Shown here piece after piece: positions 1 through 60,993 of a stretch of 64,000 nucleotides of DNA. The DNA is from Candidatus Nealsonbacteria bacterium (GTDB lineage: Bacteria; Patescibacteriota; Minisyncoccia; Minisyncoccales; RBG-13-36-15). Location of the stretch: assembly GCA_011050465.1 (NCBI GenBank), contig DRFQ01000009.1, forward strand, positions 334 to 64,333, written 5' to 3'. The stretch's first letter is position 1. Every line of letters starts with the position of its first letter. Below the pieces are notes generated by a model. That model did not search any database. It was not told where the DNA came from and was given only the letters and a program-made list of their open reading frames with translations. The position numbers were made by a program, and so were the translations under genes.

Positions 1-1160
1 ATATTGAGAATATTATTAGAAAAGAAATGAATAGTATCGGCGGGCAAGAAATTCTGATGCCGGTTTTACAACCAAGATTTCTTTGGGAAAAGACCGGCAG
101 ATGGTCAAAGGGGATAGGCAAGATTATGTACAAAACCCTTGATACCTCTGGTCAGGAATTAGCTTTGGGTCCCACTCATGAGGAAATATTAACCAATATA
201 ATTTCAAAACATATAAAGTCTTATACCGATCTTCCTTTGTATGTTTATCAGATTCAGGCCAAATTCAGGAAAGAACTAAGGGCAAAATCAGGTTTATTGA
301 GGTGCCGGGAATTCGGGATGAAAGATTTATACAGCTTCCATACTTCAGAAAAAGATTTTAAAAAATATTATGAAATTGTAAAAAAGTCCTATCTTAAGAT
401 TTTTAAGAGATGTGGGCTTAAGATAATTGTTACTGAAGCCTCGGGGGCTGGCTTTACAAAAGAATATACTCACGAGTTTCAAGTTCTGTCTGAGGACGGA
501 GAAGATAGTGTTATTTACTGTTCAAGACATCATTTCGCCCAAAACAAAGAGATAGCCAAGCTTAAAAAAATAGGTCATTGTCCAGTTTGTAAAAACAGCC
601 TTAAAGAAGGAAAATCTATTGAAGTTGGAAACATTTTCCCTTTAGGGACGAAATATTCCAAAGATTTCAATGCTCATTTTATTGATCAAGATGGCAAGAA
701 AAAATTAATTATTATGGGCTGTTACGGCATAGGATCTACCAGGATCATGGGAGCAATTGCTGAAGTGCATTATGATAACAAAGGAATTATTTGGCCAGAA
801 GAGGTAGCTCCCTTTAAGCTTCATTTAATTCCCGTTGAAGATTCGCCACAAGTTAGAAAAGCAGCTGAAAAGCTATATCGAGATTTATCCTCCTTCGCTC
901 CCAAGAAGATGAGCTACGGAGGATCCACCGAAGCCTCTGGCGTAGGTGGACAAAGACAAAAAATTGAAGTACTGTACGACGATAGGAAAGGAAGAAGAGT
1001 GGGGGAGAAATTTGCAGAAGCCGATTTAATCGGTATTCCTTACAGGATTGTAGTAAGTGAAAGAACGTTGAAGAGAAAAAGCATAGAGATAAAGAAAAGA
1101 GATGAAAAGAAAGTTCAATTGGTTAAGATAAAACAATTATCACAATTCTTAAATGACTAA
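1..1160 (+). CDS. proS: Prolyl-tRNA synthetase, 5-prime end cut by the window edge
   Basis: The frame is open from nt 3 (IENIIRKE before the first Met). Class II motifs are present: GPTHEE, FRKELRAKSGLLRCREFGMKD, and the C-terminal anticodon-binding LYDDR..GEKFAEADLIGIP. There is no INS editing domain. It contains a 63-nt GC-rich insert at 888-950. Confidence 0.9.
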   Translation, partial: IENIIRKEMNSIGGQEILMPVLQPRFLWEKTGRWSKGIGKIMYKTLDTSGQELALGPTHEEILTNIISKHIKSYTDLPLYVYQIQAKFRKELRAKSGLLRCREFGMKDLYSFHTSEKDFKKYYEIVKKSYLKIFKRCGLKIIVTEASGAGFTKEYTHEFQVLSEDGEDSVIYCSRHHFAQNKEIAKLKKIGHCPVCKNSLKEGKSIEVGNIFPLGTKYSKDFNAHFIDQDGKKKLIIMGCYGIGSTRIMGAIAEVHYDNKGIIWPEEVAPFKLHLIPVEDSPQVRKAAEKLYRDLSSFAPKKMSYGGSTEASGVGGQRQKIEVLYDDRKGRRVGEKFAEADLIGIPYRIVVSERTLKRKSIEIKKRDEKKVQLVKIKQLSQFLND

Positions 1161-2770: not shown

Positions 2771-4255
2771 ATGGAATTATATGAACTTACTATTACTAAA
2801 GCTCACGAGAAACTTGTCAAGAGAGAGATATCATCTTTTGAACTTACTAAAGCTTTTTTAGAAAGAACAGAGGATTTAAATAAAAAAATTTCTTCATATT
2901 TAACAGTTACTTTCGACTCAGCGCTATCTGAAGCAAAAAAGATTGATGATTTAATTCGTCAGAGGAAAAAAATTAGTATGTTGGCAGGAATTCCTCTGGC
3001 TATTAAGGACAATATTCTAGTCGAGGGCGTGAGATGTACAGCAGCTTCAAAAATTTTAGAGGCCTATATTGCTCCTTACGATGCTACCGTGGTAAAAAGA
3101 ATTAAAGAGCAAGGAGCAGTTATCTTAGGAAAGACTAATTTAGATGAATTTGCCATGGGTTCTTCGACTGAGAATTCGGCTTTTGGGACAACAAAGAATC
3201 CTTATGACTTAATGCGGGTCCCTGGTGGTTCTTCGGGAGGATCAACAGCTGCCGTAGCAGCCAATATGTGTTGTTATGCTTTAGGCTCTGATACAGGAGG
3301 TTCTATCCGTCAGCCAGCTTCTTTTTGCGGGGTAGTTGGTTTAAAGCCTACCTATGGAGCAGTTTCTCGTTATGGCTTAATTGCTATGGCTTCTTCTTTG
3401 GATCAGATAGGGTTAGCAACAAAGACAGTAGAGGATGCTAAAATTGTATTTGAGGCGATTGCAGGGAAAGACCCCCTCGATTCAACATCGGTTGAATTAC
3501 CAAAACTACCCGCCAGAGGCGAGGCTCGCCAGAGGCGGCAAACTACAAACTACAGCCCACAGACTTTAAAGATCGGTGTCCCTAAAGAGTACTTTATTCA
3601 AGGAATGGATCCAGAAGTAGAAAGAATAATCCGGGATTCGATTGAGAAGCTCGAAAGTTTAAAGATAAAAATTGAAGAAATTTCTCTTCCTCACACAGAT
3701 TACGCTTTAGCCAGTTATTATATTATTATGCCGTCTGAAGCTTCAGCAAACTTAGCCAGATACGATGGCATAAAGTACGGACATTCTATAACCAGAGACC
3801 GGAAGGCAGAGGTCAAAAATTTATTAGATGTCTATCTAAGATCGAGAGAAGGAGGTTTTGGAGAGGAGGTGAGACGAAGAATCATGTTGGGCACTTATGT
3901 ATTATCTGCGGGTTATTACGAAGCTTACTATTTGAGAGCGCAGAAAGTCAGGACTTTGATTAAGAAAGATTTTGAAAAAGCCTTTCAAAAAGTAGATTTA
4001 ATTTTAACTCCCGTTTCGCCAACGCCAGCCTTTAAAATCGGAGAAAAAATTACCGACCCTTTAACCATGTATCTTTCAGATGTTTTCACCATTGCGGTCA
4101 ATTTAGCTGGTTTGCCGGCAATATCTATTCCTGTTGGAAAGATAGGAAAGCTCCCGGTTGGTCTTCAGATAATCGGGAAGCCTTTTTCAGAGAATACGAT
4201 TTTAGAATTTGGTCAATTTTTTGAAGAAAACCAAATATTTTTTGAAAAAAATTAA
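2771..4255 (+). CDS. gatA: Asp/Glu-tRNA amidotransferase subunit A
   Basis: Amidase signature GGSSGGSTAAVAA and GSDTGGSIRQPASFCG. A GC-rich in-frame insert lies at about 3509-3560 (PARGEARQRRQTTNYSPQ). Confidence 0.93.
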   Translation: MELYELTITKAHEKLVKREISSFELTKAFLERTEDLNKKISSYLTVTFDSALSEAKKIDDLIRQRKKISMLAGIPLAIKDNILVEGVRCTAASKILEAYIAPYDATVVKRIKEQGAVILGKTNLDEFAMGSSTENSAFGTTKNPYDLMRVPGGSSGGSTAAVAANMCCYALGSDTGGSIRQPASFCGVVGLKPTYGAVSRYGLIAMASSLDQIGLATKTVEDAKIVFEAIAGKDPLDSTSVELPKLPARGEARQRRQTTNYSPQTLKIGVPKEYFIQGMDPEVERIIRDSIEKLESLKIKIEEISLPHTDYALASYYIIMPSEASANLARYDGIKYGHSITRDRKAEVKNLLDVYLRSREGGFGEEVRRRIMLGTYVLSAGYYEAYYLRAQKVRTLIKKDFEKAFQKVDLILTPVSPTPAFKIGEKITDPLTMYLSDVFTIAVNLAGLPAISIPVGKIGKLPVGLQIIGKPFSENTILEFGQFFEENQIFFEKN

Positions 4256-4767: not shown

Positions 4768-4935
4768 CCCCCCACCTATTTTGCCAGTTGACATACTGGA
4801 GACACACGATGGGCGAATAGCCCAGTCCACCGAAGGTGGGCCTCACTATTCATGAGAGTGTGTCGCAGGAATTTAACCTCTATATTTTGTATATTTTGGT
4901 TAAACTTAAGATTGAGTAGTAAAATAGGTGGGGGG
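4768..4935. other. Structured GC-rich element enclosed by a perfect 15-bp inverted repeat (candidate ncRNA or palindromic element)
   Basis: ccccccacctatttt (4768-4782) pairs with aaaataggtgggggg (4921-4935). Inner stems are gacacac/gtgtgtc, tgggc-gaata-gccca and ccacc-gaa-ggtgg. Confidence 0.35.
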
Positions 4936-4971: not shown

Positions 4972-5043
4972 CGCGCCGTGGAGAAACGGTTATCTCGCCT
5001 GTCTCATAAGCAGGAGCAGTAGGTTCAACTCCTACCGGCGCAA
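4972..5043 (+). tRNA. tRNA-Met (CAU), initiator-like
   Basis: A cloverleaf was folded by hand, with anticodon loop CTCATAA. C1xA72 mismatch and an A11:U24 pair are bacterial initiator hallmarks, but the three G:C pairs of the anticodon stem are absent. CCA is not encoded. Confidence 0.8.
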
Positions 5044-5095
5044 CAATATTGTAAAGCAAATTTGACCGATAACTATTTTGGTAGAATTGGAATTT

Positions 5096-5168
5096 GCCGG
5101 TGTAGCTCAGTGGTTAGAGCAGGGCCTTCATAAGGCCAAGGTCATAGGTTCAAATCCTGTCACCGGCA
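5096..5168 (+). tRNA. tRNA-Met (CAU), elongator type (Ile2/lysidine type not excluded)
   Basis: Acceptor GCCGGTG/CACCGGC, D arm GCTC-AGTGGTTA-GAGC, anticodon loop TTCATAA, T arm ATAGG-TTCAAAT-CCTGT. Confidence 0.85.
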
Positions 5169-5321
5169 TAACGCCGGGTTCGTCCCGTCATTCGACGAGG
5201 CGTCCAGTCGGATGGCTGGGCGAGTCCCACCCTCGGCATAAAATTCGAATAGACCCGTGGTGTAGCCCGTTCGGATACTACGGAGCAAGCACGTTTTTCT
5301 GTCAATTTCGTACCAAAATTT

Positions 5322-5397
5322 GGGCGCGTGGTGTAGCCTGGTTTAACGCGCTTCCCTGTCACGGAAGAGATCGCCGGTTCAAATCCGGTCGCGCCCG
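5322..5397 (+). tRNA. tRNA-Asp (GUC)
   Basis: Acceptor GGGCGCG/CGCGCCC, anticodon arm CTTCC-CTGTCAC-GGAAG, T arm GCCGG-TTCAAAT-CCGGT, discriminator G. Confidence 0.9.
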
Positions 5398-5434
5398 CAC
5401 TTCGACAAGCTCAGTGCAAGACAAAAATTCATCT

Positions 5435-5443
5435 TGATATAAT
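5435..5443 (+). promoter_or_regulatory. Extended -10 promoter (TGATATAAT) for the sigma factor gene
   Basis: A perfect TGnTATAAT lies about 45 nt upstream of ATG 5490. An SD-like GGGAGTGAGAG precedes the start. Confidence 0.4.
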
Positions 5444-5489
5444 AAAAAAAACGAACGGCAGTACAATACCACAAGAAAGGGAGTGAGAG

Positions 5490-6296
5490 ATGTCGGACAG
5501 CACCTTAACAAATAAGAATGATAGCACTTTGGTACAAGCAGCTGAAATTCCACAGAAACCTAATTTTAAAGAAGTGTATACTCAGTACTACAGGCGTATT
5601 CTACGCTATATACAGGCAAGAACTAATAGCCTTGAGATCGCCGAAGATCTGACAGGAAAAGTATTTCTTAAAGCCCTTGAGAGCTACAGAAGATTTAGAA
5701 TGAAAGAAGGCCCAGAATCGCCCAGATTTTGGCTTTTTCGCATAGCCCACAATATCGTTGTGAGTTGGCAAAGAAAAAACGTTATAAGGTTTATCAGGCT
5801 CGATGAAATTGATCTACATATTCCCGATAATCTCGTCGATATCATTGAGAAGAAAGTTAAACGCACTTGGCTCTTGCAGGCAATAAAGAATTTAATATCC
5901 GGGCAGCAATTAGTAATTGCTTTGATTATTTTCTTCGGTTTCAAACTAAAACAAATCGCTAAGATTTTAGACGTTACAGAGGGTTGTGTAAAAACAAGAA
6001 AGCATAAAGCCATCAAAGTTTTGAGGCTGGCAGTTTCAGCTGATAGACTCGACAATAACGAGAATAATAGAGGAACCCTTTCTATTATTGATGTAATTGA
6101 AGCTGCAAAGCATGTTTTGGACTCTGGGCTGCCGCAAACCTCAGCGCCATTACATCAAGTCTTTTCTCTTGAAGTGGCAAAGATCCTGGAAGAAAGAGGC
6201 TACCGATTTCCGGATATTCTTAAGGTTTTATCATCTTTACCGGAAGATTTTTTCAAAGAAATTATTAAAGAGAATCCATACACGCTGAAAATATAG
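5490..6296 (+). CDS. Sigma-70 family (ECF-like) RNA polymerase sigma factor with a C-terminal extension
   Basis: Region 2-like FWLFRIAHNIVVSWQRK. Region 4 HTH LKQIAKILDVTEGCVKTRKHKAIKVLR. An extra C-terminal tail of about 80 aa. Confidence 0.8.
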   Translation: MSDSTLTNKNDSTLVQAAEIPQKPNFKEVYTQYYRRILRYIQARTNSLEIAEDLTGKVFLKALESYRRFRMKEGPESPRFWLFRIAHNIVVSWQRKNVIRFIRLDEIDLHIPDNLVDIIEKKVKRTWLLQAIKNLISGQQLVIALIIFFGFKLKQIAKILDVTEGCVKTRKHKAIKVLRLAVSADRLDNNENNRGTLSIIDVIEAAKHVLDSGLPQTSAPLHQVFSLEVAKILEERGYRFPDILKVLSSLPEDFFKEIIKENPYTLKI

Positions 6297-7847: not shown

Positions 7848-8594
7848 ATGGGAATCGAGAATAACGCTTTGAATATTTTAGAGGCAGGGGCGGTAGAAAT
7901 TAGAAATGTTCCCCTGAAAGTAACGAATGAGGAAGTAGAAACGCTTCCTCGAGGAAAACAGCCCTTTCTCTACGCCTCAGGTAATTGGGGTCCCGGTTAT
8001 GTGATGATTAAAGACCTGGTTGGACGAAAAAAGACAATAAAGCTTCTCATCAAACAGTTAGCCATTAAGGTGGCAAGGGAAATTCCTCGCCTGGATTTTG
8101 TTGCCGGTAATGTTACCGGAGGAATAATCCCTGGCTGGCAACTTAGCGAAGAACTAGAACTGTTGCTTGGAAAGACCATACCCTTTGTTTACATCCGGGA
8201 AGCTCGGAAAAAGGGCGGACAGAAAGAGTTGATTACTGGGATTGCTGGCAATCCAGAGATTCCGCCAGGAGCCAATGGTTTGGTCGTAGAAGAATTGGTC
8301 AATTTCGCCCAGACTACTTGCAATAGTGCCGATATATTAAGAGAAGCAGGACATGTGGTTAATTACGCAGCAACTATTCTTTTTTATGATAATCCTGAGG
8401 CAATCAGAATTCTTCAAGAGCGTGGGATTGAGATGATATATCTTTTGACTCTACCAGAGCTCTTGACGGTGGCAGAAAAGCATCTGATTTTTTCTCAGCA
8501 AGCTATTGAGAGTTACCGGACATTTCTTACCAATCCGTTAGAATGGCAGATGACCAAAGGCCTAAGGCCAATCGAAAGAGGAGGAACTCTTTGA
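7848..8594 (+). CDS. Type I phosphoribosyltransferase, orotate PRTase-like
   Basis: PRPP-loop-like GLVVEELVNFAQTT (EE in place of the usual DD) and REARKKGGQKE. The SD AAGGAGG lies upstream. Confidence 0.65.
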   Translation: MGIENNALNILEAGAVEIRNVPLKVTNEEVETLPRGKQPFLYASGNWGPGYVMIKDLVGRKKTIKLLIKQLAIKVAREIPRLDFVAGNVTGGIIPGWQLSEELELLLGKTIPFVYIREARKKGGQKELITGIAGNPEIPPGANGLVVEELVNFAQTTCNSADILREAGHVVNYAATILFYDNPEAIRILQERGIEMIYLLTLPELLTVAEKHLIFSQQAIESYRTFLTNPLEWQMTKGLRPIERGGTL

Positions 8595-9307
8595 TGAATC
8601 AACCACTTTTTCTTGTAGCCCTAGACGGCTTAGCCGACAACGAAGAAGAAACCTTTAATATCGCTGATAGATTTTTATTGCATATAGAAGGACATTTCGG
8701 CTTCAAGGTTAACCTGGATTATCTGTTGAGCCCGAATAAGGATTTAAGAACAAAGATTAGAAATATTCAAAATTGGGGCAGACCATTATTCGTCGATCTA
8801 AAGATGTGGAATGGTTCAAGAACTATGACGTCAGTTCTTGAGACTTTAGTTGAGATGGGAGTAGAGTATACAAATATCTATGCTTTAGCCGACGATCTTC
8901 TTAAGAAAGCTCTTAGAGTAACCGAAGGAAGCAATACTAAAGTACTGGGTCTTACTGTATTGACCCACTATAATGATGCCTATTGCCGAAGACACTTCAG
9001 GAGGCCGTTCAAAGAGACGGTAAGGCATTTTGCTGAAGTTGCTATTGAGGCTGGTTGCCACGGGATAATTGTGCCAGGCACCACATTAGAGGTAGTTCGA
9101 GACCTTAACACAACAACATTGGTGTCGGGAGTTCGGCCCAGGTGGTATTCAGATACAAGGCATGAACAAGAAGTCACCCCAGGAGAGGCTGTAGATAAAG
9201 GTGCTGATATTTTAGTCTGCTGTAGCCCCATTTTTAAGAGCTTGGATCAAGTTGGAGCTCTTCAAAAAATTCTCGATGAAATAGCAGGACACTCCGTCTT
9301 GTTTTGA
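8594..9307 (+). CDS. Orotidine-5-phosphate decarboxylase-like protein
   Basis: LFLVALD, FKVNLD and FVDLKMWN resemble the OMPdecase Asp/Lys network. The start was chosen at the TGATG overlap (MNQPLF), with GAGGAGG 10 nt upstream. The track ORF starts earlier, at 8543. Confidence 0.6.
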   Translation: MNQPLFLVALDGLADNEEETFNIADRFLLHIEGHFGFKVNLDYLLSPNKDLRTKIRNIQNWGRPLFVDLKMWNGSRTMTSVLETLVEMGVEYTNIYALADDLLKKALRVTEGSNTKVLGLTVLTHYNDAYCRRHFRRPFKETVRHFAEVAIEAGCHGIIVPGTTLEVVRDLNTTTLVSGVRPRWYSDTRHEQEVTPGEAVDKGADILVCCSPIFKSLDQVGALQKILDEIAGHSVLF

Positions 9308-9379
9308 AGCCTAGGTGAAAGGCTAAAAACTCACTGGAAAAAACTGGTCGGAAAACAATAATTATACTATAATTTTAAA

Positions 9380-9405
9380 GTCGCTGGATTCAGCGACCTT
9401 TTTAT
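9380..9405 (+). terminator. Intrinsic terminator
   Basis: gtcgctg-gatt-cagcgac followed by CTTTTTATTT. Confidence 0.6.
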
Positions 9406-9563: not shown

Positions 9564-10613
9564 ATGCCAAATCTAAAATTGCTTCAAAAAAAGATTGAAA
9601 AAGATCTAAAAGAAGCTAAAAAATTGAGACAACTTGAAAACGTTTTCCAAAAATATTTAGGTAAAAAAGGCGAAATTACCGGGATTTTACGTTCTTTAAA
9701 AAACCTGTCTCAAACAAAAAGGATTAAAACTGGAAAAGAGGCGAATGAGCTTAAAAGCATTATCAAACAAAAAATAGAAGTTAAAACAAAAAAAATACGT
9801 TCCATTGAAAGGGTCGCCAAAGAAACAGGATGGATTGATATTACTATTCCCGGCAAAAAACCCTTGGCTGGCCATTTGCACCCTTTAACTTTAGTCAAAA
9901 GACAAGTTGAGGAGATATTTCAAGCAATGGGCTTTTCGGTGGTTGATGGGCCAGAAATTGAAACCGAATGGTATAATTTCGATGCCTTAAATATTCCCAA
10001 GGATCATCCGGCTCGCGACATGTGGGATACTTTTTGGCTAAAAGACAGTAAATTACTTTTAAGAACTCATACCTCTCCGGTCCAGATTAGATATATGGAA
10101 AAAAATAATCCTCCTATAAAAATTATTGTGCCCGGAAGAATTTTTCGTCACGAAGCAACTGACGCCTCCCACGAAACTAATTTCTATCACGTCGAAGGAT
10201 TAGTGGTTGATCAAGAAACTTCAACTGCCCATTTTAAATCTATAATCCAGGAGTTTTTCAAAAGATTTTTTTCTGGATCCTCCGAAGCTTTACGCAAAGG
10301 AGGACAAAAAGAAACTAAGATACGCATGAGGCCGAGCTATTTTCCGTTCACTGAACCTTCTTTTGAAATAGATATGAGTTGTTCGAATTGCCAGGGCAAA
10401 GGATGTTCAGCTTGTTCCCAGACCGGCTGGATGGAAATGATGGGAGCTGGAATGGTTCATCCTAATGTCCTCAAAGCCGCTGGTCTGAATCCTAAAAACT
10501 GGCAAGGTTTTGCCTTTGGGATGGGTTTAGACAGATTGGCAATGATGAAATATAAAATCAACGACATCCGCCTTTTTTATGGCGGTGACCTAAGATTTTT
10601 AAATCAATTTTAA
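9564..10613 (+). CDS. pheS: Phenylalanyl-tRNA synthetase alpha subunit
   Basis: FRHEATDASHETNFYHVEG, PSYFPFTEPSFE and GFAFGMGLDRLAMM. A GC-rich in-frame insert lies at about 10275-10312. Confidence 0.93.
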   Translation: MPNLKLLQKKIEKDLKEAKKLRQLENVFQKYLGKKGEITGILRSLKNLSQTKRIKTGKEANELKSIIKQKIEVKTKKIRSIERVAKETGWIDITIPGKKPLAGHLHPLTLVKRQVEEIFQAMGFSVVDGPEIETEWYNFDALNIPKDHPARDMWDTFWLKDSKLLLRTHTSPVQIRYMEKNNPPIKIIVPGRIFRHEATDASHETNFYHVEGLVVDQETSTAHFKSIIQEFFKRFFSGSSEALRKGGQKETKIRMRPSYFPFTEPSFEIDMSCSNCQGKGCSACSQTGWMEMMGAGMVHPNVLKAAGLNPKNWQGFAFGMGLDRLAMMKYKINDIRLFYGGDLRFLNQF

Positions 10614-11576: not shown

Positions 11577-11694
11577 AAGCTTCAAAGTACCGACCCTCAA
11601 AATCCCAGCGAGATTTTGGGGTCTGCGTTCTCGGCTCGTCGTCCGCCCTCGGCGGAACCATGCCGTCGAGCCTCCGAAAGCTACTTTGAAGCTT
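11577..11694. other. GC-rich structured element between the NIF3-like gene and pheT
   Basis: A 13-bp perfect outer stem, aagcttcaaagta (11577-11589) with tactttgaagctt (11682-11694), encloses three hairpins, including ccgcc-ctc-ggcgg. Confidence 0.4.
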
Positions 11695-21684: not shown

Positions 21685-23235
21685 ATGACCTATACGCCAA
21701 TAGTTGGCCTGGAAATTCATGTTGAGCTGAAGACTCGATCAAAGATGTTTTGCGGTTGCGCGAATGATCAAAACGAAAAACATCCTAATAATAATATTTG
21801 CCCGATTTGCATGGGGCATCCCGGTACCCTGCCGGTGATTAACCGAGAAGCAGTTAGAAAAGTAATAAAAACAGGTCTTGCTTTACATTGCCAAATTTTA
21901 GAAAATTCTAAATTTGACCGGAAAAATTATTTTTATCCAGACTTACCCAAAGGATATCAAATTTCTCAATATAATCTTCCTCTTTGTAAAGAAGGCTATC
22001 TCCAAGTGACCCTAGGCAATTTCATCCCGCCCCGTTTACAAGAGGGGCGAGGCAGGCAATCGAAAGTCAGAATTAGAAGAATTCATTTAGAGGAAGATAC
22101 TGGAAAACTTTTACATCCAGAAGGCACTGATTATTCTTTGGTCGATTTTAATAGAGCTGGCATTCCTTTAATGGAATTGGTGACTGAACCCGATATAAGA
22201 TCAGCAAAAGAAGCCAGGAGGTTTTCAGAAGAATTGAGATTAATTTTAAGATATTTAGGAGTCTCTGATGTTAATATGGAAAAGGGGCAGATGAGAGTAG
22301 AAGTTAATTTAAGCCTACTCCCGGCCGAAAAAGCAAAACAAAGAATAAAAAGCGATAAAGAATTAGGAACAAAAGTAGAAATTAAAAATTTGAACTCATT
22401 TCGGGCAGTAGAAGGAGCCCTAAAGTATGAAACTAAGAGGCAGACTGAAGTTTTAGAATCTGGCAAGAAAGTTATTCAAGAAACGCGGGGTTGGTCCAAA
22501 AGCAGAGGAGTAACATTATCTCAGAGAGAGAAAGAGGAGGCTTATGATTACCGATATTTTCCAGAGCCCGACTTACCCCCTCTTCATATTACAGGGAAAG
22601 AAATTTCAGAGATTAAATCAGAGATTCCCGAGCTTCCTCAACAAAAAAGAGAAAGATTTGCCAAAGAATATAATTTGGACGAGAGAGATGTAGAAGTTTT
22701 TGTTCAAAACAAAGACCTTGGCGCATATTTTGAGAAAGTTATATCGGAACTTAAGGATTGGATAAAGTCGATAGAACTTAAAACCAAACTATCTGATAGA
22801 GAAATCAAGAGATTCGTTAAGTTAGCGGCAAATTATGTATTGACGGATCTTCAAAGGCTTTTAAAAAAGGCTTCGGTGGCGGGTGATGATTTTCCAATTA
22901 CCCCAGAGAATTTCGCTGAGTTTATAGCTTTGATTTATGAAGGAAAAATATCAAGCAAAATTGCCAAGCAGGTTCTTTTAGAAATGTTTAAAACAGGAGC
23001 CGATCCATCCCATATTATTAAAGAGAAAAAACTTAGCTTAATTACTGATGAATCAGAGATTGAGAAAATTATAAAAAACGTTTTAAATAAAAATCAGACG
23101 GCAATTAATGATTTCAAGGATGGCAAAGGAAACGCTTTACAATTTTTAGTTGGTCAGGTAATGCAGGAGACAAGGGGCCGGGCTAATCCCCAAACAGTAA
23201 AAGATATTTTAGAAAAAGAGTTGACAAAAACTTAA
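21685..23235 (+). CDS. gatB: Asp/Glu-tRNA amidotransferase subunit B
   Basis: GLEIHVELKT, CPICMGHPGTLP, IHLEEDTGK and a C-terminal YqeY-like tail. A GC-rich in-frame insert lies at about 22022-22060. Confidence 0.93.
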   Translation: MTYTPIVGLEIHVELKTRSKMFCGCANDQNEKHPNNNICPICMGHPGTLPVINREAVRKVIKTGLALHCQILENSKFDRKNYFYPDLPKGYQISQYNLPLCKEGYLQVTLGNFIPPRLQEGRGRQSKVRIRRIHLEEDTGKLLHPEGTDYSLVDFNRAGIPLMELVTEPDIRSAKEARRFSEELRLILRYLGVSDVNMEKGQMRVEVNLSLLPAEKAKQRIKSDKELGTKVEIKNLNSFRAVEGALKYETKRQTEVLESGKKVIQETRGWSKSRGVTLSQREKEEAYDYRYFPEPDLPPLHITGKEISEIKSEIPELPQQKRERFAKEYNLDERDVEVFVQNKDLGAYFEKVISELKDWIKSIELKTKLSDREIKRFVKLAANYVLTDLQRLLKKASVAGDDFPITPENFAEFIALIYEGKISSKIAKQVLLEMFKTGADPSHIIKEKKLSLITDESEIEKIIKNVLNKNQTAINDFKDGKGNALQFLVGQVMQETRGRANPQTVKDILEKELTKT

Positions 23236-34506: not shown

Positions 34507-35668
34507 ATGCCCAACACATCTTCCAGACTAAACGAACTTCAAGATAAACTCCATCATTTGATGGACTGTCTTTGAATTAGAGAAAAAGAAAGAGAAAATT
34601 AAAGAGCTGGAAAAAGAAAGAGAAAATCCTGATTTTTGGCAAAACCAGAAAAGAGCAGTCAGAATTAATCAAGACATCGCCCTTTTGAAAGAGGAAACAG
34701 AAAGACTCGAGAGTTTCAGAAAGGAACTGGACGATTTGGAAGAATTGAATAAATTAATTAAAGGAGAGGAGGTAAAAGACATTGAGAGCAAGATTGAATC
34801 TCTGGAAACAAAAATTAAAGAAGAAGAATTCAAAACTTTTCTCTCCGGAAAGTATGATAAATCTTCAGCTGTTCTTTCTATTTATGCAGGGGCCGGCGGA
34901 CAGGATTCTCAGGACTGGGCAACGATGCTGTTGAGAATGTATGAGAGATTTTGCTATGGCAGGGGATTTAGAACCAAAATTTTACATCAGTCTTTTGGCG
35001 AAGGCGGAGGGCCGGACGGAAGAATTGGGACGAAATCCGTAACCTTAGAAATTCAAGGGCACTATGCTTTCGGCTTTTTAAAAAAAGAATCAGGAGTTCA
35101 TAGGTTGGTTAGAATTTCGCCTTTTTCTCCCCAGCAACTTCGTCATACCTCTTTTGTTTTAGTTGAAGTTTTGCCGGAAATTGAAAAGGAGACAGAAGAT
35201 GAAATCAAAATCAAACCAGAAGATTTGAGAATTGATTTTTATCGAGCTTCGGGGCCCGGCGGCCAACATGTTAATCGTCGGGAAACAGCTGTCAGAATTA
35301 CCCATTTGCCAACCAACCTTGTGGCCTCTTGCCAGGCAGAAAGATCGCAGGGACAGAACAGAGAGAGAGCAATGAAGATGATTTATTCAAAACTTTATCA
35401 ATTGAAAGAGGCTGAACAGCAAGAAAAAATATCTCAGATAAAAGCCGCCGAACGGCAAGCTTCCCGCCTAAAGCGAGGTTCGCCCGAGGCGACGTCCGGA
35501 GGGCAGGGAAAAGCTATTTCAGCCAGCTGGGGAAATCAAATCAGGTCTTATGTCCTTCATCCATATAAATTAGTTAAAGATTTGAGAACCAATCTTGAAA
35601 CTTCAGACGTAGAAGGAGTATTAGACGGTAATCTGGGCCAATTCATTGAAGCCGGAATTAAAATATAA
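34507..35668 (+). CDS. prfB: Peptide chain release factor 2, with programmed +1 frameshift at 34570-34575 (CTT TGA)
   Basis: Frame 0 reads MPNTSSRLNELQDKLHHLMDCL then TGA. The +1 frame continues ELEKKKEKIKELEKERENPDFWQN..., then GGQHVNRRETAVRITH (GGQ) and WGNQIRSYV. A GC-rich in-frame insert lies at about 35444-35512. Confidence 0.9.
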
Positions 35669-37387: not shown

Positions 37388-37461
37388 TGCGGGGTCGTCT
37401 AACGGTAGGACGGATGCCTCTGGAGCATTTAATCTAGGTTCGAATCCTAGCCCCGCAGCCA
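37388..37461 (+). tRNA. tRNA-Gln (CUG), CCA encoded
   Basis: U1-A72 acceptor TGCGGGG/CCCCGCA, D arm GTCT-AACGGTA-GGAC, anticodon arm GATGC-CTCTGGA-GCATT, T arm CTAGG-TTCGAAT-CCTAG, then GCCA. Confidence 0.9.
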
Positions 37462-37487
37462 TCATATGCTAAGTCAGGTGACCGAGA
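37456..37487 (+). repeat. Left direct repeat (att-like): cagccatcatatgctaagtcaggtgaccgaga
   Basis: It matches 46194-46225 at 30 of 32 positions and overlaps the tRNA-Gln 3-prime end. Confidence 0.85.
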
Positions 37488-46018: not shown

Positions 46019-46193
46019 AATTTCCTCAGGTCGTTTTTAAAATGGTACGTCATACTATCCCAAATGGAACACCCCCTTTCTGTGTCCCATTTGTCCCATT
46101 TTAGCTTAAAAAGCCCCGACCGAGACGCCTAAATGGAACACGGCCAAAATCGCCCAAAACACCCTTAAAACTGGGGTTCAGAACTGAGGTACA

Positions 46194-46225
46194 CAGCCAT
46201 CCTATGCTAAGTCAAGTGACCGAGA
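46194..46225 (+). repeat. Right direct repeat (att-like): cagccatcctatgctaagtcaagtgaccgaga
   Basis: 30/32 match to 37456-37487. Confidence 0.85.
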
Positions 46226-47224: not shown

Positions 47225-47352
47225 ATTCGTCCCTGACCGAGACGCGTCAATGAGACACGCCTCAAACCCCCTAATTTCCCCTTAAAACACAGGTTCTAGA
47301 CTAAGGATGTCAGCAACAGTCAGCGCAGTATCGAGGCCGACCGAGAGGCCTC

Positions 47353-49712: not shown

Positions 49713-49725
49713 AGCCCCGCAGCCA
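49713..49725 (+). repeat. Exact 13-nt copy of the tRNA-Gln 3-prime end (agccccgcagcca)
   Basis: Identical to 37449-37461. It abuts the start of the 147-nt repeat. Confidence 0.8.
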
Positions 49726-49866
49726 AGCACAACTCGGTATCGAGGGCGACCGATTCCCGTACAAAATTGGTTCGAGTCCAGGTGCCGTCGCGGTACTAGA
49801 CCGAGGCGGTTCGAGTCGCAGCCCCCCAGCACCAGTCAGCGCAGTATCGAGGCCGACCGAGAGGCC
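49720..49866 (+). repeat. 147-nt direct repeat, copy A
   Basis: It differs from 51151-51297 at 5 positions by eye. It contains two degenerate tRNA T-arm-like segments (ggttcgagtcc, ggttcgagtcg) and ends in gaccgagaggcc. Confidence 0.9.
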
Positions 49867-50032
49867 TATTTTGAAGCTATTTTCTTGACGGGTCTAGGAC
49901 GTCCTAAACCCGTACCCGTCTAGGAATAGAACTCTACGAACAAAAAAGGAGCAGTTCGAGTAGTAGCGCCAGAGCATTTCTACGGATTTCTTCGGATTTT
50001 AAACTTTCAATTCTTTAATATAATTTATGTAA

Positions 50033-51150: not shown

Positions 51151-51297
51151 CAGCCAAGCACAACTCAGTATCGAGGGAGACCGATTCCCGTACAAAATTG
51201 GTTCGAGTCCAGGTGCCGTCACGGTACTAGACCGAGGCGGTTCGAGTCGCAGCCCCGCAGCAACAGTCAGCGCAGTATCGAGGCCGACCGAGAGGCC
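51151..51297 (+). repeat. 147-nt direct repeat, copy B
   Basis: See copy A. Confidence 0.9.
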
Positions 51298-51359
51298 CTT
51301 TGTCTGAGGCGTACAGCCTCGGGGTTTTGTTTCTGTTTTTAGTTTGGTAAAATGAAATA

Positions 51360-54300
51360 ATGGCTAAAATTGTTAAAAATAAATTAGGGAATTTTTTGGC
51401 GATTTGCCTTATCCTTTTGATGGTGGCGGGTTGGATTTTTTCTGGCTGGCCACAAGTGTGGCACGATCCTCCTTTTCCTCCAAAAGTTGAAGACGTACAT
51501 GCTACAACAAGAACAATTGAGCAGCAGATAAATATTATTGACCAGGAGTATGAGTCGGAGGTGCTGGGTTCTTATAAGCCAACCGATAATAGTCTTGGCC
51601 TGATCCGTTGGGATAGTGCCAAATATCCTGGCGCTGTGGTTTATTTTGAAGCAGTAGCAATGGTGTTTGCCGAGACCGATACTGTCAAGGTAGCTCTTTT
51701 TAGCTCTGACGGAACACAAGTTGCAAATAGTGAAGTAACCCATTCTAGCGCTGGTAATTATACAAGAGTAAGATCTAGCGCCCTTACTTTGGGTACGCTC
51801 CCCAATTTGCAGAGCAATACCGATTATTCTGTAAGGGTAAAAGCCGTGAATGATTGGGTTTCGCTCAAAGCCGCCCGCCTCATAATTGTCCAGTCCGACG
51901 GCACAAAAATTACAGATACCGTTACTCAAATTGAAGCTGGGGATAATCAGTCTACGACGGCAACCTCAGGAAGTCCGAGCACCCTTGCAAACCCAAATTA
52001 TTATATGTTTGACAAGGATATGTTTTCAGGAACATACGGGACAGACATTAACGCTTATTTTGAGGCGTCTCTTAAAGCTTCAGCAATACTCTCCGCTGCC
52101 GCTTATTATTTCAACGCCTACGACAGCGGTACCGCCTGGACCAACGCCCCAGCGCAGATGGTTGACGGTTCAACGAGCAACTTCGCGGTAACCGGCGGCT
52201 CCGATGAAAATCAACGCAACACCGCAAGCACGTGCGACGCCACATGCGGTGCAAAAAGCGAGACAATCACAAAAGTGGAATTAAGAGTTTATGCTTGCCA
52301 AGATAACGCTGATAACGGATGGATTACCTTAACCCCGTATTTTTCCGGTTCATCGCAGGGAGACGGGCACACTTGGTCGGCGGTTCCCGACGGGAATAGC
52401 TGTGAAACCGGGGTTGCCGCCTGGAGCCCTTATTTTGACATTACAAGCGATACAAATGCTCCGGGCACTTGGGGATGGAGCGATGTAGAAAACCTTGATG
52501 TTAATGTGTTCGGTGACAGACAGGGAGGAGCCGATGTTATCCACGCGGCGCAAGTCGATATTCAAGTAACGTATGAACCGGGTACAACATCTACCGCATA
52601 CGCAGAGCTTTATAACCGCACCAATAGCGCAGTAGTTGGTAATAGTACTATTTCTGTGAATAGCACTAGTTGGACGCGAGTTCGTGGCGCAAGTGCTTTG
52701 AACTCGTCAGACAACTGGGATATAACCAATGATGATGAATATGAAGTGCGCATTTATTCTTCAAGCGGTTCTGACGCCGCCTATATTGCTAATGCTAAAA
52801 TTGTTATTGAACAGAGTATTTCAGGGGGTATAGATAAACTGGAGACGGTGCATCAGTATAATAATACGTTGGTAAGTCTCGGAGGTGATGTGGTAACTGT
52901 TTATGCTCAATTAACTATTTCAGGAGGTGCTGCCATCTCTGGTAGTAAGCAAAGTACTGGTAGTGGCAGTTATACGCGGTTGAGAAGCAGTGGTTTAACA
53001 TTATCTACTAATGATTTTGATGTTGAGTTAAGCGTGAACGATTCAGCATATACGGAACAAGGATTTATGAACAAATATGATTCTACTAATTGGGTGGGTG
53101 GAACTTTTGTATATTTATTTGAAACAATACTTAAAAATGTTGTTACAGTTAGAGAGGACTCCTCAACTTCCTGGCTTATCATTCAGATATCTGGGCTTGC
53201 TTCTATTATCGCAACTACTACCATTGGTGATGGTACTGACCCCAGTGATTCAACGGTTGCACCGGAAAGCGGGATTACTGATCTTGATGCAGTCACTTTC
53301 GTTACCAACACCGGCACTGATTCCATTACTGCCGTAACCGTTACTCTTGGGGCAGGTGATTCAGATAATTTGAGCGAGGTGCGGATTACAAACGATAATG
53401 GATTAACGACATATTTTTCCGCAATTTCCAGTCCCTCAAGTGACACACTCAATTTTAGCGGTGGCACACCAATACCGGTTACAGCTTCATCAACGCAGTT
53501 TAAGGTCAGAATCACTCCAGAAACTCACGCCAACATGCCAGCTCCCCAGGGAGCAGAATATGCTATAACCGGAACCATTACCGCTTTTACCAGTACCAAC
53601 ACCCAGGCAGGAACAGATACCGGCAGTGCCATGATAACCATTGACAACTTATCGCCCAATAACGCCACATCCACAAGTGGTAGTGTTACTTCAGATACTG
53701 AAATAACAATCAACTGGACGACTTCCAACAGTACCGATTACAATCGCTCAATCGTACTGCGGTGGCAAGCCTCCCTTCCTGGGGCCGATGTGCCAGCAGA
53801 AGGTACTAATTATAGTCTTGATGATACCATTGGCGGAGCAAAGGTGGCTTGTGTAGAGAATACCGGTACTTCTTCTACGGCCTACAGCGGGGTTGATGGT
53901 TCTGGTGCAGATGAGTGTAGCACTACCGCTTTGTCTGTCGGTACGCAATATTCATATAAACATTTTGAGAAGGATGATAACGGAAACTGGAATACAGGAT
54001 TTACGAACGCCAGCTCTCCTTTAACGACAACCGGCGGCGCAACTTTAACCTTTAGTATTTCCGACAACGATATATTCTTTGGTGATTTGAGCGCTTCGGC
54101 GTCTAAATGGGCAGATAATACCGCAGACGGAAGCACTACAGCAGTGGTTGCCCATACGCTCGCCGCCTCAACAAACGTCACCAACGGATACACCATAACC
54201 GTAAACGGAACCACGCTTACTTCGGGTGGTGATACCATTATTGCCATGGCTTCTGAAGCTATTCTTACCACCGGGCAAGAAGAGTTTGGTCTGCGCATTA

Positions 54301-54527
54301 CGGCTTCTGGCGGAAACGGTACGGTTGATGCTGATTATGACAATAGTCCAGCTGACAGCTATGCCCTCATTACTGGTAACTTTCCGGATGTGATTGCAAC
54401 AGACGCAGACGGCGATGACGTGAGCACCACATATTCGCTCTACTATGCAGCAAACATTACCGCAAACACCGAGGCCCACACCGACTACACTTCCAGCCTA
54501 ACCTACGTTGCAACCGGAAACTTTTAG
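51360..54527 (+). CDS. Large (1055 aa) Thr/Ser/Asn/Gly-rich cell-surface protein with N-terminal membrane anchor, internal repeats, FN3-like module and a C-terminal domain shared with the next gene
   Basis: TM helix LAICLILLMVAGWIF. A motif repeated three times (YTRVRSSALTL / WTRVRGASAL / YTRLRSSGLTL). ITINWTT...YSYKHF is FN3-like. The last 190 aa or so are paralogous to 54678-55817. It is GC-richer than the core genes. Confidence 0.7.
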   Translation: MAKIVKNKLGNFLAICLILLMVAGWIFSGWPQVWHDPPFPPKVEDVHATTRTIEQQINIIDQEYESEVLGSYKPTDNSLGLIRWDSAKYPGAVVYFEAVAMVFAETDTVKVALFSSDGTQVANSEVTHSSAGNYTRVRSSALTLGTLPNLQSNTDYSVRVKAVNDWVSLKAARLIIVQSDGTKITDTVTQIEAGDNQSTTATSGSPSTLANPNYYMFDKDMFSGTYGTDINAYFEASLKASAILSAAAYYFNAYDSGTAWTNAPAQMVDGSTSNFAVTGGSDENQRNTASTCDATCGAKSETITKVELRVYACQDNADNGWITLTPYFSGSSQGDGHTWSAVPDGNSCETGVAAWSPYFDITSDTNAPGTWGWSDVENLDVNVFGDRQGGADVIHAAQVDIQVTYEPGTTSTAYAELYNRTNSAVVGNSTISVNSTSWTRVRGASALNSSDNWDITNDDEYEVRIYSSSGSDAAYIANAKIVIEQSISGGIDKLETVHQYNNTLVSLGGDVVTVYAQLTISGGAAISGSKQSTGSGSYTRLRSSGLTLSTNDFDVELSVNDSAYTEQGFMNKYDSTNWVGGTFVYLFETILKNVVTVREDSSTSWLIIQISGLASIIATTTIGDGTDPSDSTVAPESGITDLDAVTFVTNTGTDSITAVTVTLGAGDSDNLSEVRITNDNGLTTYFSAISSPSSDTLNFSGGTPIPVTASSTQFKVRITPETHANMPAPQGAEYAITGTITAFTSTNTQAGTDTGSAMITIDNLSPNNATSTSGSVTSDTEITINWTTSNSTDYNRSIVLRWQASLPGADVPAEGTNYSLDDTIGGAKVACVENTGTSSTAYSGVDGSGADECSTTALSVGTQYSYKHFEKDDNGNWNTGFTNASSPLTTTGGATLTFSISDNDIFFGDLSASASKWADNTADGSTTAVVAHTLAASTNVTNGYTITVNGTTLTSGGDTIIAMASEAILTTGQEEFGLRITASGGNGTVDADYDNSPADSYALITGNFPDVIATDADGDDVSTTYSLYYAANITANTEAHTDYTSSLTYVATGNF

Positions 54528-54677
54528 TTTATAGGTTTTCCACAACCAGCTTATTGATGTTGTTGCTTGATACTGGTATTCTGTTATAATAAATAAAAAC
54601 CATAAAAAGGTTACGTTTCGTATCAGCCAATATAACTATTCCTTTCCCTTGGTCGATAAGGAATACAAAAACTGCCA

Positions 54678-55817
54678 ATGAACCAACTATATTTTATAAG
54701 AAGAAACATAGATATAAAAAAAGTCCTTACCAGCTTGGGGCTTATTGTCGCAGTGCTGGTGTTGTTGATAGCGCCGCCCGTGCAGATTGCAAGGGCAGCT
54801 ACCTTGCTGAACATGAGAGACACTCTCACTACCGTGAAGGCAAGTACCGTAACTGACCATGAGATTATATTCCGCACGCCAACGGGAGCTGATGAGTCCA
54901 CAGACACCATCATCATTGACATTGGAGCTACCGATACCTCGTGGAATACCAGCAGCTTAGCGATTGGTGACGTGGATTTGGCGCACTCAGCCGGTGCCCA
55001 GAGCGACTGCGACGCTCCAACATTCAGCAACGAGGAGACACTTGCAGCTTCCGCTACCGCCACCGATTGGCAACTGGACTTTGACACCACAAACGATATC
55101 CTTACCTTCACTGCCCCAACAGACGGCGTGGGAGCCGCTGCTATTGCAACTAACGCCTGTGTGCAGATACAGATTGGTACCAATGCTAGTGGAGGATCAA
55201 ACCAGATTACCAACAGCACTGCGGGCAGCAAGAATATAGACATTTTGGGTACCTTTAACGACACCGGTACCATAGTGGTAACGCTCATAGCTGACGATAT
55301 AGTAGTGACAACTGCCACGGTCGTTGCTTCTCTAACGTTTACCGTTGATGATAATGATATCTTTTTTGGCACCTTGGGCGCTGGGGCAGCAAAATGGGCA
55401 GATAATACCGCAGACGGAAGCACTTCGTCAGTCGTTGGCCACACCATGACCGTAGGTACCAACAGTACATCCGGCTACAGTGTTACTTACAACGGTACCG
55501 CGCTCACGTCTGGTTCAGATAAAATTTCCGATAGCGGCAACACCACCATTACCGGAGATGCGGACGGAACTCCCGGCTCAGAGGAGTTTGCCATTGGGGT
55601 TACCGTGAGCGACAACGCGACTATTGCTTCTGGATATGAGCAGGCCTCCAACAACTTCAAGTTTGTTGAAAGCACCACTGCCACACTTGTCTCTGAAACT
55701 ATTCAAACCGCCGCAGAAACAATCTCTGTCTACTACATAACCAACATTGCCGCAAACACCGAGGCCCACATCGACTACACTTCCAACATAACCTACATTG
55801 CAACCGGGAACTTCTAG
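54678..55817 (+). CDS. Secreted surface/fibre-subunit-like protein, paralogous C-terminal domain
   Basis: Signal peptide ending IARA-ATLL. The C-terminal domain (DNDIFFG..KWADNTADGST...TEAHIDYTSNITYIATGNF) aligns with the C-terminus of the 1055-aa protein. Confidence 0.7.
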   Translation: MNQLYFIRRNIDIKKVLTSLGLIVAVLVLLIAPPVQIARAATLLNMRDTLTTVKASTVTDHEIIFRTPTGADESTDTIIIDIGATDTSWNTSSLAIGDVDLAHSAGAQSDCDAPTFSNEETLAASATATDWQLDFDTTNDILTFTAPTDGVGAAAIATNACVQIQIGTNASGGSNQITNSTAGSKNIDILGTFNDTGTIVVTLIADDIVVTTATVVASLTFTVDDNDIFFGTLGAGAAKWADNTADGSTSSVVGHTMTVGTNSTSGYSVTYNGTALTSGSDKISDSGNTTITGDADGTPGSEEFAIGVTVSDNATIASGYEQASNNFKFVESTTATLVSETIQTAAETISVYYITNIAANTEAHIDYTSNITYIATGNF

Positions 55818-55861
55818 GAGCTCTCTTGCTCGATGCCGTGCTGGCGTGATAGCATAACATC

Positions 55862-60857: not shown

Positions 60858-60888
60858 TAGGTTCGAACAGCGTTCACGCCCCGCAGCA
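60858..60888 (+). pseudogene. Degenerate copy of the tRNA-Gln 3-prime half (taggttcgaa...gccccgcagca)
   Basis: It shares taggttcgaa and gccccgcagc with tRNA-Gln 37438-37461, but the T stem is disrupted. It marks the far end of the accessory region. Confidence 0.55.
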
Positions 60889-60993
60889 CTTCGACAAGCT
60901 CAGTGCAGGCCACCTTGAGCGCAGTATCGAGGCCGACCGTGAGGGCTTCCCGTTAGGGCGACCGAGATGGATATAAGTAAAAAAAATCGCTAG

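Follow-up and report, generated by a model that had tools for sequence, protein, structure and literature searches.

The genes proS and pheS, which encode prolyl-tRNA synthetase (ProRS) and the alpha subunit of phenylalanyl-tRNA synthetase (PheRS), each carry a short, GC-rich, hairpin-forming block inside their coding sequence in a 64,000-nucleotide stretch of DNA from a Candidatus Nealsonbacteria bacterium. We refer to this whole stretch as the window. The blocks are precise insertions relative to both close and distant orthologues, they have been gained or lost between near-identical strains, and the same sequences recur in unrelated genes and genomes. It is likely, in our view, that both blocks belong to a family of palindromic DNA repeats that are GC-rich and very small, are similar to repetitive extragenic palindromic (REP) sequences and resemble Rickettsia palindromic elements (RPEs) in being sited in frame within genes. 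The family is apparently undescribed; REPs located within genes are themselves already known.

The window is AT-rich (roughly 37% GC), and the best matches of its proteins are to Candidatus Nealsonbacteria and to other Parcubacteria/Patescibacteria. Orthologues were compared using the 120 best or closest relatives (clusters) for each of ProRS, PheS and release factor 2 (RF2, encoded by prfB), and contigs of relatives are labelled L001, L006-L012, L253, etc. We use the term type A for the 27-nt hairpin type of proS and pheS, and type B for direct CGCC-AGA-GGCG mini-hairpins of the kind found in gatA.

Inserts in proS, pheS and other genes

The proS insert is found at 888-950, and is exactly 63 nt, or 21 codons. 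In the orthologue alignment, its peptide SSFAPKKMSYGGSTEASGVGG lies between DL and QRQK. The full block is present in 5 of 120 ProRS clusters, i.e., the window and four others, while two clusters have a short form of 10 residues (30 nt) and the remaining clusters read DL-QKQK without a gap. In L006 and L007, the short form consists of two 15-nt mini-hairpins, TCCGCC-CAA-GGCGGA-TCCACC-GCA-GGTGGA. The inner stem of the first hairpin is partly decayed in the window's lineage, and reads GCTCCT/AGGAGC in relatives. The tetranucleotide GTAG, which is relevant to the comparison with REPs below, occurs in the 3' internal loop of the second hairpin and on the opposite strand of the first.

The pheS insert consists of TCTGGA followed by a 27-nt hairpin, TCCTCC-GAA-GC-TTTAC-GC-AAA-GGAGGA (10278-10304), and contains no GTAG. 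The block is missing from 112 of 120 homologues, which read RFF followed directly by xK. Counting length variants, 5-24 extra amino acids are present at this site in 7 of the 120 clusters (the window and six others), and two further PheS clusters have an insert 2 amino acids downstream of the window's site. A predicted structure of PheS, which is of medium quality (pLDDT 65.5) and was used only for this placement, places the insert after a helix that spans 221-237 and ahead of a strand that spans 252-256. Experimental structures are also without these blocks: the Pseudomonas aeruginosa PheRS structure 4p71 has an 11-residue gap exactly opposite SGSSEALRKGG, and the ProRS structure 5znj has one residue where the window's ProRS has 23. 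The original prediction, a note made from the window's sequence, had held that the proS block forms an exact 63-nt unit of two tandem hairpins, that both blocks are GC-rich islands in AT-rich genes and that these synthetases normally have short connectors in their place. Orthologue alignment and folding agree with the first of these statements, the GC content (0.59 versus 0.35 for proS as a whole, and 0.52 versus 0.37 for pheS) with the second, and orthologues and structures with the third.

Close relatives reveal recent changes at the pheS site. In L010, which is 95% identical to the window at the nucleotide level, the site is precisely empty: AGATTTTTT is followed directly by CAAAGT, as compared to AGATTTTTT, 33 nt and then CAAAAA in the window. 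No target duplication is visible when the filled and empty sites are compared. In L009, which is 98.4% identical over 11 kb, there are only two indels relative to the window, and the only one in coding sequence is a 39-nt hairpin-forming block nested within the pheS hairpin. No template for this nested block is present in the 11 kb of surrounding sequence.

Copies are present in at least four, and perhaps five, of approximately 60 genes in the window. The gatA insert is 80% GC and comprises two direct type B mini-hairpins. Between the gatA copy of L008 and the pheS copy of L011, the latter from an unrelated Patescibacterium, type B is identical at 28 of 30 positions (peptide PAGGEARQGR). Type B is also found in L012, both in pheT and in pheS, where another hairpin is nested inside it. 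The prfB insert is absent from 106 of 120 homologues, and seven of the 120 have only an 11-amino-acid basal form, whose DNA shares the core GGCGAGCCTCGCC; the window adds 30 nt nested within this form. The possible fifth copy is in gatB, where the GatB_N match spans 300 residues for 273 profile positions. The gatA and prfB copies, together with at least 240 other loci in the collection scans described below, are in line with the expectation that the two synthetase blocks would have further relatives.

Some additional observations concern the same genes. Just upstream of the gatA insert, positions 3479-3498 (codons DSTSVE) form a conserved 8-bp hairpin, GATTCAAC-ATCG-GTTGAATT. Its counterpart in L001 is CGATTCGAC-GTCG-GTCGAATCG, with a compensatory A-T to G-C change at synonymous sites, which suggests that structure may be selected within this conserved coding sequence. 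RF2 homologues P0278, P0285, P0304 and P0316 have a different 26-amino-acid insert (e.g., SASPHIKQRQAAEGGKSDEVSLRSGV) a few residues downstream of the prfB site, and ProRS proteins P0036 and P0070 have a distinct 15-amino-acid insert (GTRTIMRGGKEDLSS). It appears that these connectors of RF2 and ProRS also host inserts from other families. L012 also has a gene for a 298-amino-acid reverse transcriptase (RVT_1; 8486-9382, minus strand), with the pheS gene bearing the nested type B element located about 600 bp downstream.

Pairing, kinship and range of the repeats

The proS and pheS blocks were proposed to share a hairpin element on the basis of an alignment of about 36 nt. The window does contain both sequences, ggatccaccgaagcctctggcgtaggtggacaaag (921-955) and ggatcctccgaagctttacgcaaaggaggacaaaa (10275-10309); the starts given for them, 921 and 10275, are correct, and the ends were given a few bases too long. 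The hairpin part of the alignment is indeed shared, but its 3' CAAA(G/A)A lies outside the element, and corresponds to Gln-Lys codons of the host gene that are present at empty sites as well. Since CAAA is host sequence, the likeness of the two insertion sites accounts for part of the 36-nt alignment. A blastn comparison of 921-960 with 10275-10314 gives 75% identity over 40 nt, with an E-value of 5e-4 against the window, and is the best non-self match. As one match from an all-against-all comparison, this score is by itself weak evidence. The signature TCCNCC...GGNGGA with complementary N occurs at only three sites in the 64 kb (888-923, 924-950 and 10278-10304), as compared to approximately 0.25 loci in shuffled sequence, and all three hairpins show the predicted fold (z-scores from -3.1 to -3.4). 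Chance similarity is ruled out by the shuffles, the gaps in orthologues and the size of the family.

DNA from relatives clarifies the anatomy of these hairpins. The common module is a 6-bp stem, YCCNCC/GGNGGR, which closes either a 3-nt loop (15 nt in total) or a 3x3 internal loop with a small inner hairpin (27-36 nt). The 15-nt module occurs singly, as an inverted dimer (a 30-nt palindrome), as a direct dimer and with small hairpins nested in its loop, and the proS insert is two hairpins of the longer kind in tandem. PheS of L253 has a two-hairpin composite with the proS-type junction ..TAC-GGNGGA/YCCNCC-GAA-GC.. (the slash marks the junction), and therefore ties the proS and pheS inserts directly together, in agreement with the proposal of a common element. 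The 3-nt internal loops are frequently direct repeats, e.g., GAA/GAA, GTA/GTA, AGA/AGA and TTC/TTC. A 12-nt segment with GTA(G) at its boundaries distinguishes the long forms from the short ones, which looks like a loop insertion with a 3-nt duplication, or the reverse deletion.

The stems covary. The variable pair is A-T in the window's proS (tccAcc/ggTgga) and T-A in its pheS (tccTcc/ggAgga), as the original prediction had noted, and is G-C in pheS of L001. In proS of L001, the second hairpin reads CCCACC/GGTGGG, a compensatory change of the terminal pair from T-A to C-G. Among the matches listed for the two scan patterns described below, compensated non-consensus variants at the free stem pair number 17 and 28, versus 1.2 and 5.4 expected. 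In the five proS copies, 7 of 21 unpaired columns are variable versus 6 of 42 paired columns, and changes in the stems are either compensatory or are C-to-T opposite G, with the exception of the decayed inner stem mentioned above. Variable codons in the proS insert are non-synonymous in 8 of 10 cases, including E/V, S/F, M/R and S/P, and yet the insert is 86-94% identical between relatives at the nucleotide level, versus only 63-73% for flanking proS. Since the nucleotides of the insert are more conserved than its flanks while its codons change non-synonymously, the constraint acts on pairing rather than on the peptide. All defined inserts have lengths that are multiples of three (15, 27, 30, 33, 39, 54 and 63 nt) and contain no stop codons.

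We scanned for the 30-nt palindrome TCCGCC-NRA-GGCGGA-TCCGCC-TYN-GGCGGA using the pattern TCCNCCNNNGGNGGATCCNCCNNNGGNGGA on both strands of a collection with one genome per species (596 Gb). At least 120 loci were found, versus about one expected by chance, as estimated from approximately 40 bits of pattern information. Among 80 loci listed, roughly half are in named Patescibacteria, and others are in Omnitrophota, Kiritimatiellae, Lentisphaerae, Elusimicrobia and Ignavibacteria. With its flanks, the consensus is TT/TCCGCC-NRA-GGCGGA-TCCGCC-TYN-GGCGGA/AAA, an inverted dimer of the 15-nt module whose flanks are mirror-symmetric and are not direct repeats. The flanks of 124 palindromes are TT and AA, and no GTAG or CGTC tag adjoins them. 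Even the positions left free by the pattern share a consensus among the matches listed: the free stem pair is G-C in 86%, A9 is found in 93% and T22 in 94%. Also among the matches listed, 84 of 126 palindromes lie well inside long open reading frames (ORFs), and 75 of these 84 (89%) are read in the frame S-A-x-G-G-S-A-x-G-G, though all three frames are open. Their host genes are diverse, with 72 host ORFs in this list matching 139 Pfam families, including primase, helicases, several tRNA synthetases, DNA polymerase III alpha (Pol III alpha), Pol A and ribonucleotide reductase.

The 27-nt type A pattern was scanned in a metagenome collection, and also yielded at least 120 loci. In low-GC metagenome contigs, 32 of 37 type A copies are non-coding, and therefore type A is a widespread REP-like repeat, of which the copies in proS and pheS are intragenic members. 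Within type A hairpins, GTAG is found only internally, in about 40% of copies, where it alternates with GAAG.

The distribution of the inserts on gene trees is scattered. In neighbor-joining trees built on 340-360 columns after removal of the insert columns, insert-bearing ProRS proteins appear in four places and insert-bearing PheS proteins in six, in each case adjoining insert-free sequences. This scatter, combined with the higher conservation of the insert, fits either repeated acquisition at one hot spot or one old gain followed by many precise losses under strong nucleotide-level constraint. Full-text literature searches turned up no account of elements of this kind from Patescibacteria or the Candidate Phyla Radiation.

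The palindrome also has a notable context in one genome. In the Kiritimatiellae metagenome-assembled genome STD1_155 (L014, two copies in L017, and L079), it forms one end of a larger repeat that is over 90 nt long, GCAYAGGAATTT-[palindrome]-CAATCCGTCTTTGTTGTCATTCCGAGCGTAG..., and may thus be part of a bigger element in some phyla.

Other features of the window

The positions of the genes, inserts and hairpins in the window are collected in Table 1.

Table 1. Genes, inserts, hairpins and predicted peptides in the window
Feature	Positions	Strand	Description	Basis
proS	3-1160		prolyl-tRNA synthetase ORF, 5'-truncated	protein and structure matches
proS hairpin 1	888-923	+	36 nt, TCCTCC-TTC-GCTC..GAGC-TAC-GGAGGA	fold, orthologue alignment, DNA of relatives
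proS hairpin 2	924-950	+	27 nt, TCCACC-GAA-GCC-TCT-GGC-GTA-GGTGGA	fold, signature scan, orthologue alignment
gatA insert	3509-3538	+	30 nt, peptide PARGEARQRR, CCCGCC-AGA-GGCGA-GGC-TCGCC-AGA-GGCGG	boundaries inferred from pheS copies of the same element
intergenic mini-hairpin	4826-4840	.	15 nt, TCCACC-GAA-GGTGGG	upstream of tRNA cluster
pheS	9564-10613		PheRS alpha subunit ORF	protein and structure matches
pheS insert	10272-10304	+	33 nt, 11 codons, SGSSEALRKGG between RFF and QK	orthologue alignment, empty site
intergenic mini-hairpin	11642-11656	.	15 nt, TCCGCC-CTC-GGCGGA	nested in larger hairpin in the gap between a NIF3-like gene and pheT
gatB candidate insert	22024-22059	+	IPPRLQEGRGRQ, hairpin CCGCCCC...GGGGCGAGG	GC-island scan, translation, fold
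prfB (RF2) insert	35444-35506	+	63 nt, AAERQASRLKRGSPEATSGGQ	33-nt type-B-like element with nested 30-nt hairpin block
junction-spanning peptides			MSYGGSTEASGVGGQR, FFSGSSEALR, LPARGEAR	predicted from inserts

The window has other repeats as well. Families of intergenic GC-rich repeats (37437-37487, 46114-46225, 47231-47351, 49720-49867, 51151-51298 and 60888-60947) begin like the 3' end of a tRNA (GGTTCGA.TC...CAGC) and have conserved tails, ..CAGTCAGCGCAGTATCGAGGCCGACCGAGAGGCC. In one of the copies, this is the genuine 3' end of tRNA-Gln, and a 147-nt unit is repeated at 97% identity. Neither ARAGORN nor Rfam found anything at these repeats. They could be tRNA fragments of an att-like kind, tRNAs whose introns hid them from detection, or members of a further repeat family. 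A short repeat, ACTTCGACAAGCTCAGTGCA(A/G)G, follows tRNA-Asp at 5397-5426 and recurs at 60888-60915. A similar GC-rich TTCGAC..GCTCAG is present in the Kiritimatiellae repeat that adjoins the 30-nt palindrome, and this likeness hints at further small repeats that are shared between phyla.

Within an ORF that resembles Big_6/dockerin proteins (56960-57997), there is a palindrome in coding sequence at 57221-57262. One of its arms encodes a run of Gly (GGCGGAGGAGGTGGCGGAGGA), and the arm that pairs with it, further downstream, encodes a run of Pro (CCGCCTCCGCCG). The encoded peptide is SSGGGGGGGAYIPPPPQ, and the amino acids therefore differ between the arms. The region 52000-56000 has a GC content of 0.46-0.49, versus 0.32-0.41 elsewhere in the window, and contains a 1055-amino-acid ORF as well as a repeat of 89 nt (54439/55729, 87% identical). 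The region may have been acquired horizontally, or may be a repetitive surface-protein locus.

Origin and significance of the repeats

If the blocks do belong to a family of palindromic DNA repeats, we envisage the following history. Copies would insert at T-rich/A-rich junctions (TT^(C)AA) with no target duplication, and would presumably be transcribed and translated as part of the host protein. Survivors would be under selection, such that a copy would persist only if its peptide is short, is either charged or rich in Ser/Ala/Gly, and lies in a surface connector. Pairing would be kept at the level of nucleic acid, either because the hairpin is selected or because one arm serves as the template for correcting the other, and the elements would evolve by nesting and deletion while their stems stay paired. 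The most speculative step is that a hairpin-recognising enzyme would mobilise copies in trans on single-stranded DNA, in analogy to REPs and REP-associated tyrosine transposases (RAYTs); we favour this step with low confidence.

It is important to consider the points that weigh against this family of repeats. No transposase was found: a tblastn search with a Y1/RAYT-like protein of L006 matched only L006 and L060 in 1.6 Mb of loci, and the corresponding gene of L006 is flanked by different repeats. No target-site duplication is visible, nor any GTAG/CGTC tag around the 30-nt palindrome. The copy number per genome is an extrapolation from 64 kb of this genome. The patchy distribution could result from one old gain and many precise losses rather than from repeated gains, and the high conservation of the hairpins could reflect function rather than selfishness. 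Moreover, we infer translation of the blocks only from their frame and length.

Regarding L006, this contig has two diverged Y1 genes (IS200/RAYT-like, with a HUH motif), at 81-764 and 4972-5661, one of which is flanked on both sides by TTAACGC(G/C)TTA(T/C)GATCTCGTTAAT, a sequence unrelated to the GC-rich hairpins. Apart from this unrelated-looking case, no RAYT/Y1 transposase was found near the elements in the loci searched.

Among the other explanations, the one that survives best, though we judge it unlikely, is that the hairpins are functional mRNA structures. They would be selected cis-acting elements (e.g., for ribosome pausing during co-translational folding, or for protection from or targeting by RNases) that were recruited repeatedly and are not selfish DNA. 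Such a role is consistent with the covariation of the stems, with folding z-scores around -3, with an insert that is more conserved than its flanks while its peptide changes freely, and with two of the stem changes being C-to-T opposite G, given that G-U pairs are tolerated in RNA. However, the most common form is a 30-nt palindrome that is strand-symmetric and has symmetric TT/AA flanks, and these symmetries point to a feature of DNA. In addition, copies are spread over 139 unrelated protein families, where their positions are not equivalent, and occur in intergenic regions too, a 95%-identical strain manages without the pheS copy, and there is no match to an Rfam family; Rfam matched four tRNAs and nothing else. 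Intrinsic terminators were also rejected as an explanation, because T-runs before and A-runs after the palindrome, on both strands, are the reverse of a terminator.

It is also improbable that the palindromes are immobile and were generated locally at AT-rich junctions, whether through replication template switching, through fold-back priming or through slipped duplication, with their likeness coming from this process and from selection favouring GC-rich stems that encode Ser and Gly. The direct repeats in the 3-nt internal loops, the 12-nt step bounded by GTA(G), nested growth that occurs in place and the failure to find a transposase or target duplication all favour such an origin. Against it, positions that are not constrained share a consensus across phyla (the G-C, A9 and T22 preferences given above), and the type B copies in gatA and pheS of different lineages have 28 of 30 positions in common. 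The 39-nt nested insert of L009 likewise has no template in the surrounding 11 kb, and local templating of this insert was rejected for lack of a donor in the available sequence.

There is very little chance that the blocks are removed rather than translated, whether by intron-like RNA excision or by ribosomal bypassing, as in mitochondrial 'byp' elements. Compact, stable hairpins inside essential genes might suggest removal, and the RNA genes of Patescibacteria are reported to be intron-rich (PMC13011429). However, the insert lengths are all multiples of three, no block has a stop codon, 75 of the 84 intragenic palindromes use one frame despite three being open, and there is neither a bulge-helix-bulge geometry nor an Rfam match. 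Given these lengths and frames, removal is the least likely of the three explanations considered so far. An archaeal-type bulge-helix-bulge intron was specifically rejected, since the 3-nt loops are directly opposite each other and not staggered, and lengths and frames favour translation. Inteins were rejected because the elements are too short.

We give equally little credence to ordinary lineage-specific protein loops under protein-level selection, with a chance nucleotide similarity between two Gly/Ser-rich linkers; although both sites are surface connectors whose length varies among orthologues, residues change radically while stems are kept, the same DNA is in unrelated proteins, covariation is far above expectation and the signature is enriched over shuffled sequences. 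The blocks contain GGATCC, the BamHI site, and an assembly artefact or linker was therefore considered. It was ruled out by diverged, compensated copies in independent ENA, JGI, NCBI and Logan assemblies. In the literature, GGCGGATCCGCC was found only in PCR (polymerase chain reaction) primers.

We therefore return to a family of small palindromic repeats, and compare it to known systems. The most relevant are REPs with a GTAG or CGTC tag (Di Nocera et al. 2013, PMC3733652), which are imperfect palindromes of 20-40 bp with GC-rich 6-9-bp stems, include the Rickettsia elements RPE-4 and RPE-6, and often form inverted dimers that are sometimes only 1-2 bp apart. They are mostly extragenic, but some are in frame in replication, repair, helicase and tRNA-synthetase genes, where they encode 20-30 amino acids and are thought to be neutral in flexible loops; over 90% of members have the terminal tetranucleotide (PMC3733652). 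Our elements are similar in their GC-rich 6-bp outer stems, units of 15-36 nt, inverted dimers and in-frame intragenic copies. They differ in lacking the terminal GTAG/CGTC tag, with TT/AA flanking the palindrome instead, and in having a monomer of only 15 nt, no spacer in the dimer and nested modular growth. No association with a REPtron or RAYT was seen in the 1.6 Mb of loci searched. As to location, type A is largely non-coding in low-GC contigs (32 of 37), and the 30-nt palindrome is two thirds intragenic among the matches listed. The hosts, Patescibacteria and other uncultured phyla, are outside the survey of tagged REPs.

RPEs, which are known from work by Ogata et al. in 2000 and 2002, are reportedly palindromic repeats that occur in frame in many unrelated and often essential genes of a reduced genome, and are said to be presumed translated and tolerated on protein surfaces. 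The original prediction drew this analogy, and it stands insofar as our repeats are an in-frame palindromic insertion family in many unrelated ORFs (proS, pheS, gatA and prfB, as well as 139 Pfam families elsewhere). It does not extend to their size, their REP-dimer-like form or the mostly intergenic location of type A elsewhere. RPE-1 is about 100-150 bp long and confined to one genus, and is set apart by length and host from the present elements, which measure 15-63 nt, occur in several phyla and are far smaller and more modular, with a 15-nt core and nested growth. Overall, the elements resemble intragenic REP dimers more than RPE-1. Patterns of presence and absence suggest that they colonise coding sequence, as was proposed; no mobilising enzyme was found. 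With these refinements, what the original prediction observed is confirmed and its reading of the blocks is supported.

Other known systems are less similar. REPINs, proposed by Bertels and Rainey in 2011, reportedly replicate as pairs of REPs in inverted orientation, each pair folding up as a single long hairpin. An inverted doublet is also the form of the 30-nt palindrome, but REPINs are extragenic, measure about 100 nt and are linked to a RAYT gene present in one copy; we found none of these features here. The small dispersed repeats (SDRs) of heterocystous cyanobacteria, described by Elhai et al. in 2008, are said to be 21-27-nt hairpin repeats with compensatory mutations, self-nesting and no known transposase. 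Our elements share the hairpin size, compensatory changes, nesting and failure to find a transposase, but have other sequences and hosts, and to our knowledge SDRs are not characteristically in frame inside housekeeping genes. Miniature inverted-repeat transposable elements (size 70-300 bp, with terminal inverted repeats, a target-site duplication and a related autonomous insertion sequence) are far larger, and there is no duplication at pheS. Introns, inteins and bypassing elements do not agree with lengths in multiples of three, 89% use of one frame and no Rfam match. In mitochondria of Nematomorpha, in-frame inverted repeats occur in conserved genes of AT-rich, compact genomes (PMC6649704). 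These mitochondrial palindromes and GC clusters differ in being organellar, up to 284 bp in length and protein-coding in both arms, with no dispersed cross-species family.

A bolder hypothesis, which we hold only tentatively and consider more doubtful than not, is that the 15-nt module TCCGCC-NRA-GGCGGA and its dimers are the smallest mobile DNA yet seen. They would spread within and between phyla (Patescibacteria, Omnitrophota, the Planctomycetes-Verrucomicrobia-Chlamydiae or PVC group, and others) without a RAYT or target duplication, prefer TT^AA, re-insert in their own loops and repeatedly strike the same site of orthologous essential genes. If so, repeated insertion at the same site would account for the polyphyly of insert-bearing ProRS and PheS proteins together with the greater conservation of the insert relative to its gene. 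Ultra-small bacteria would then have, in these elements, a steady supply of new surface loops for their proteins.

The genomes of Patescibacteria are minimal and leave little room between genes, and intragenic repeats show how selfish or structured DNA persists there. They are also a candidate mechanism for many unexplained insertions in conserved Patescibacteria proteins. Since near-identical inserts occur in lineages that are not sisters, they are a hazard to annotation, alignment and concatenated-marker phylogenomics; they are also usable as strain-level markers. If the elements are truly mobile, the lower size limit of mobile DNA would drop, and they would point to a hairpin-processing enzyme that is common to several uncultured phyla.

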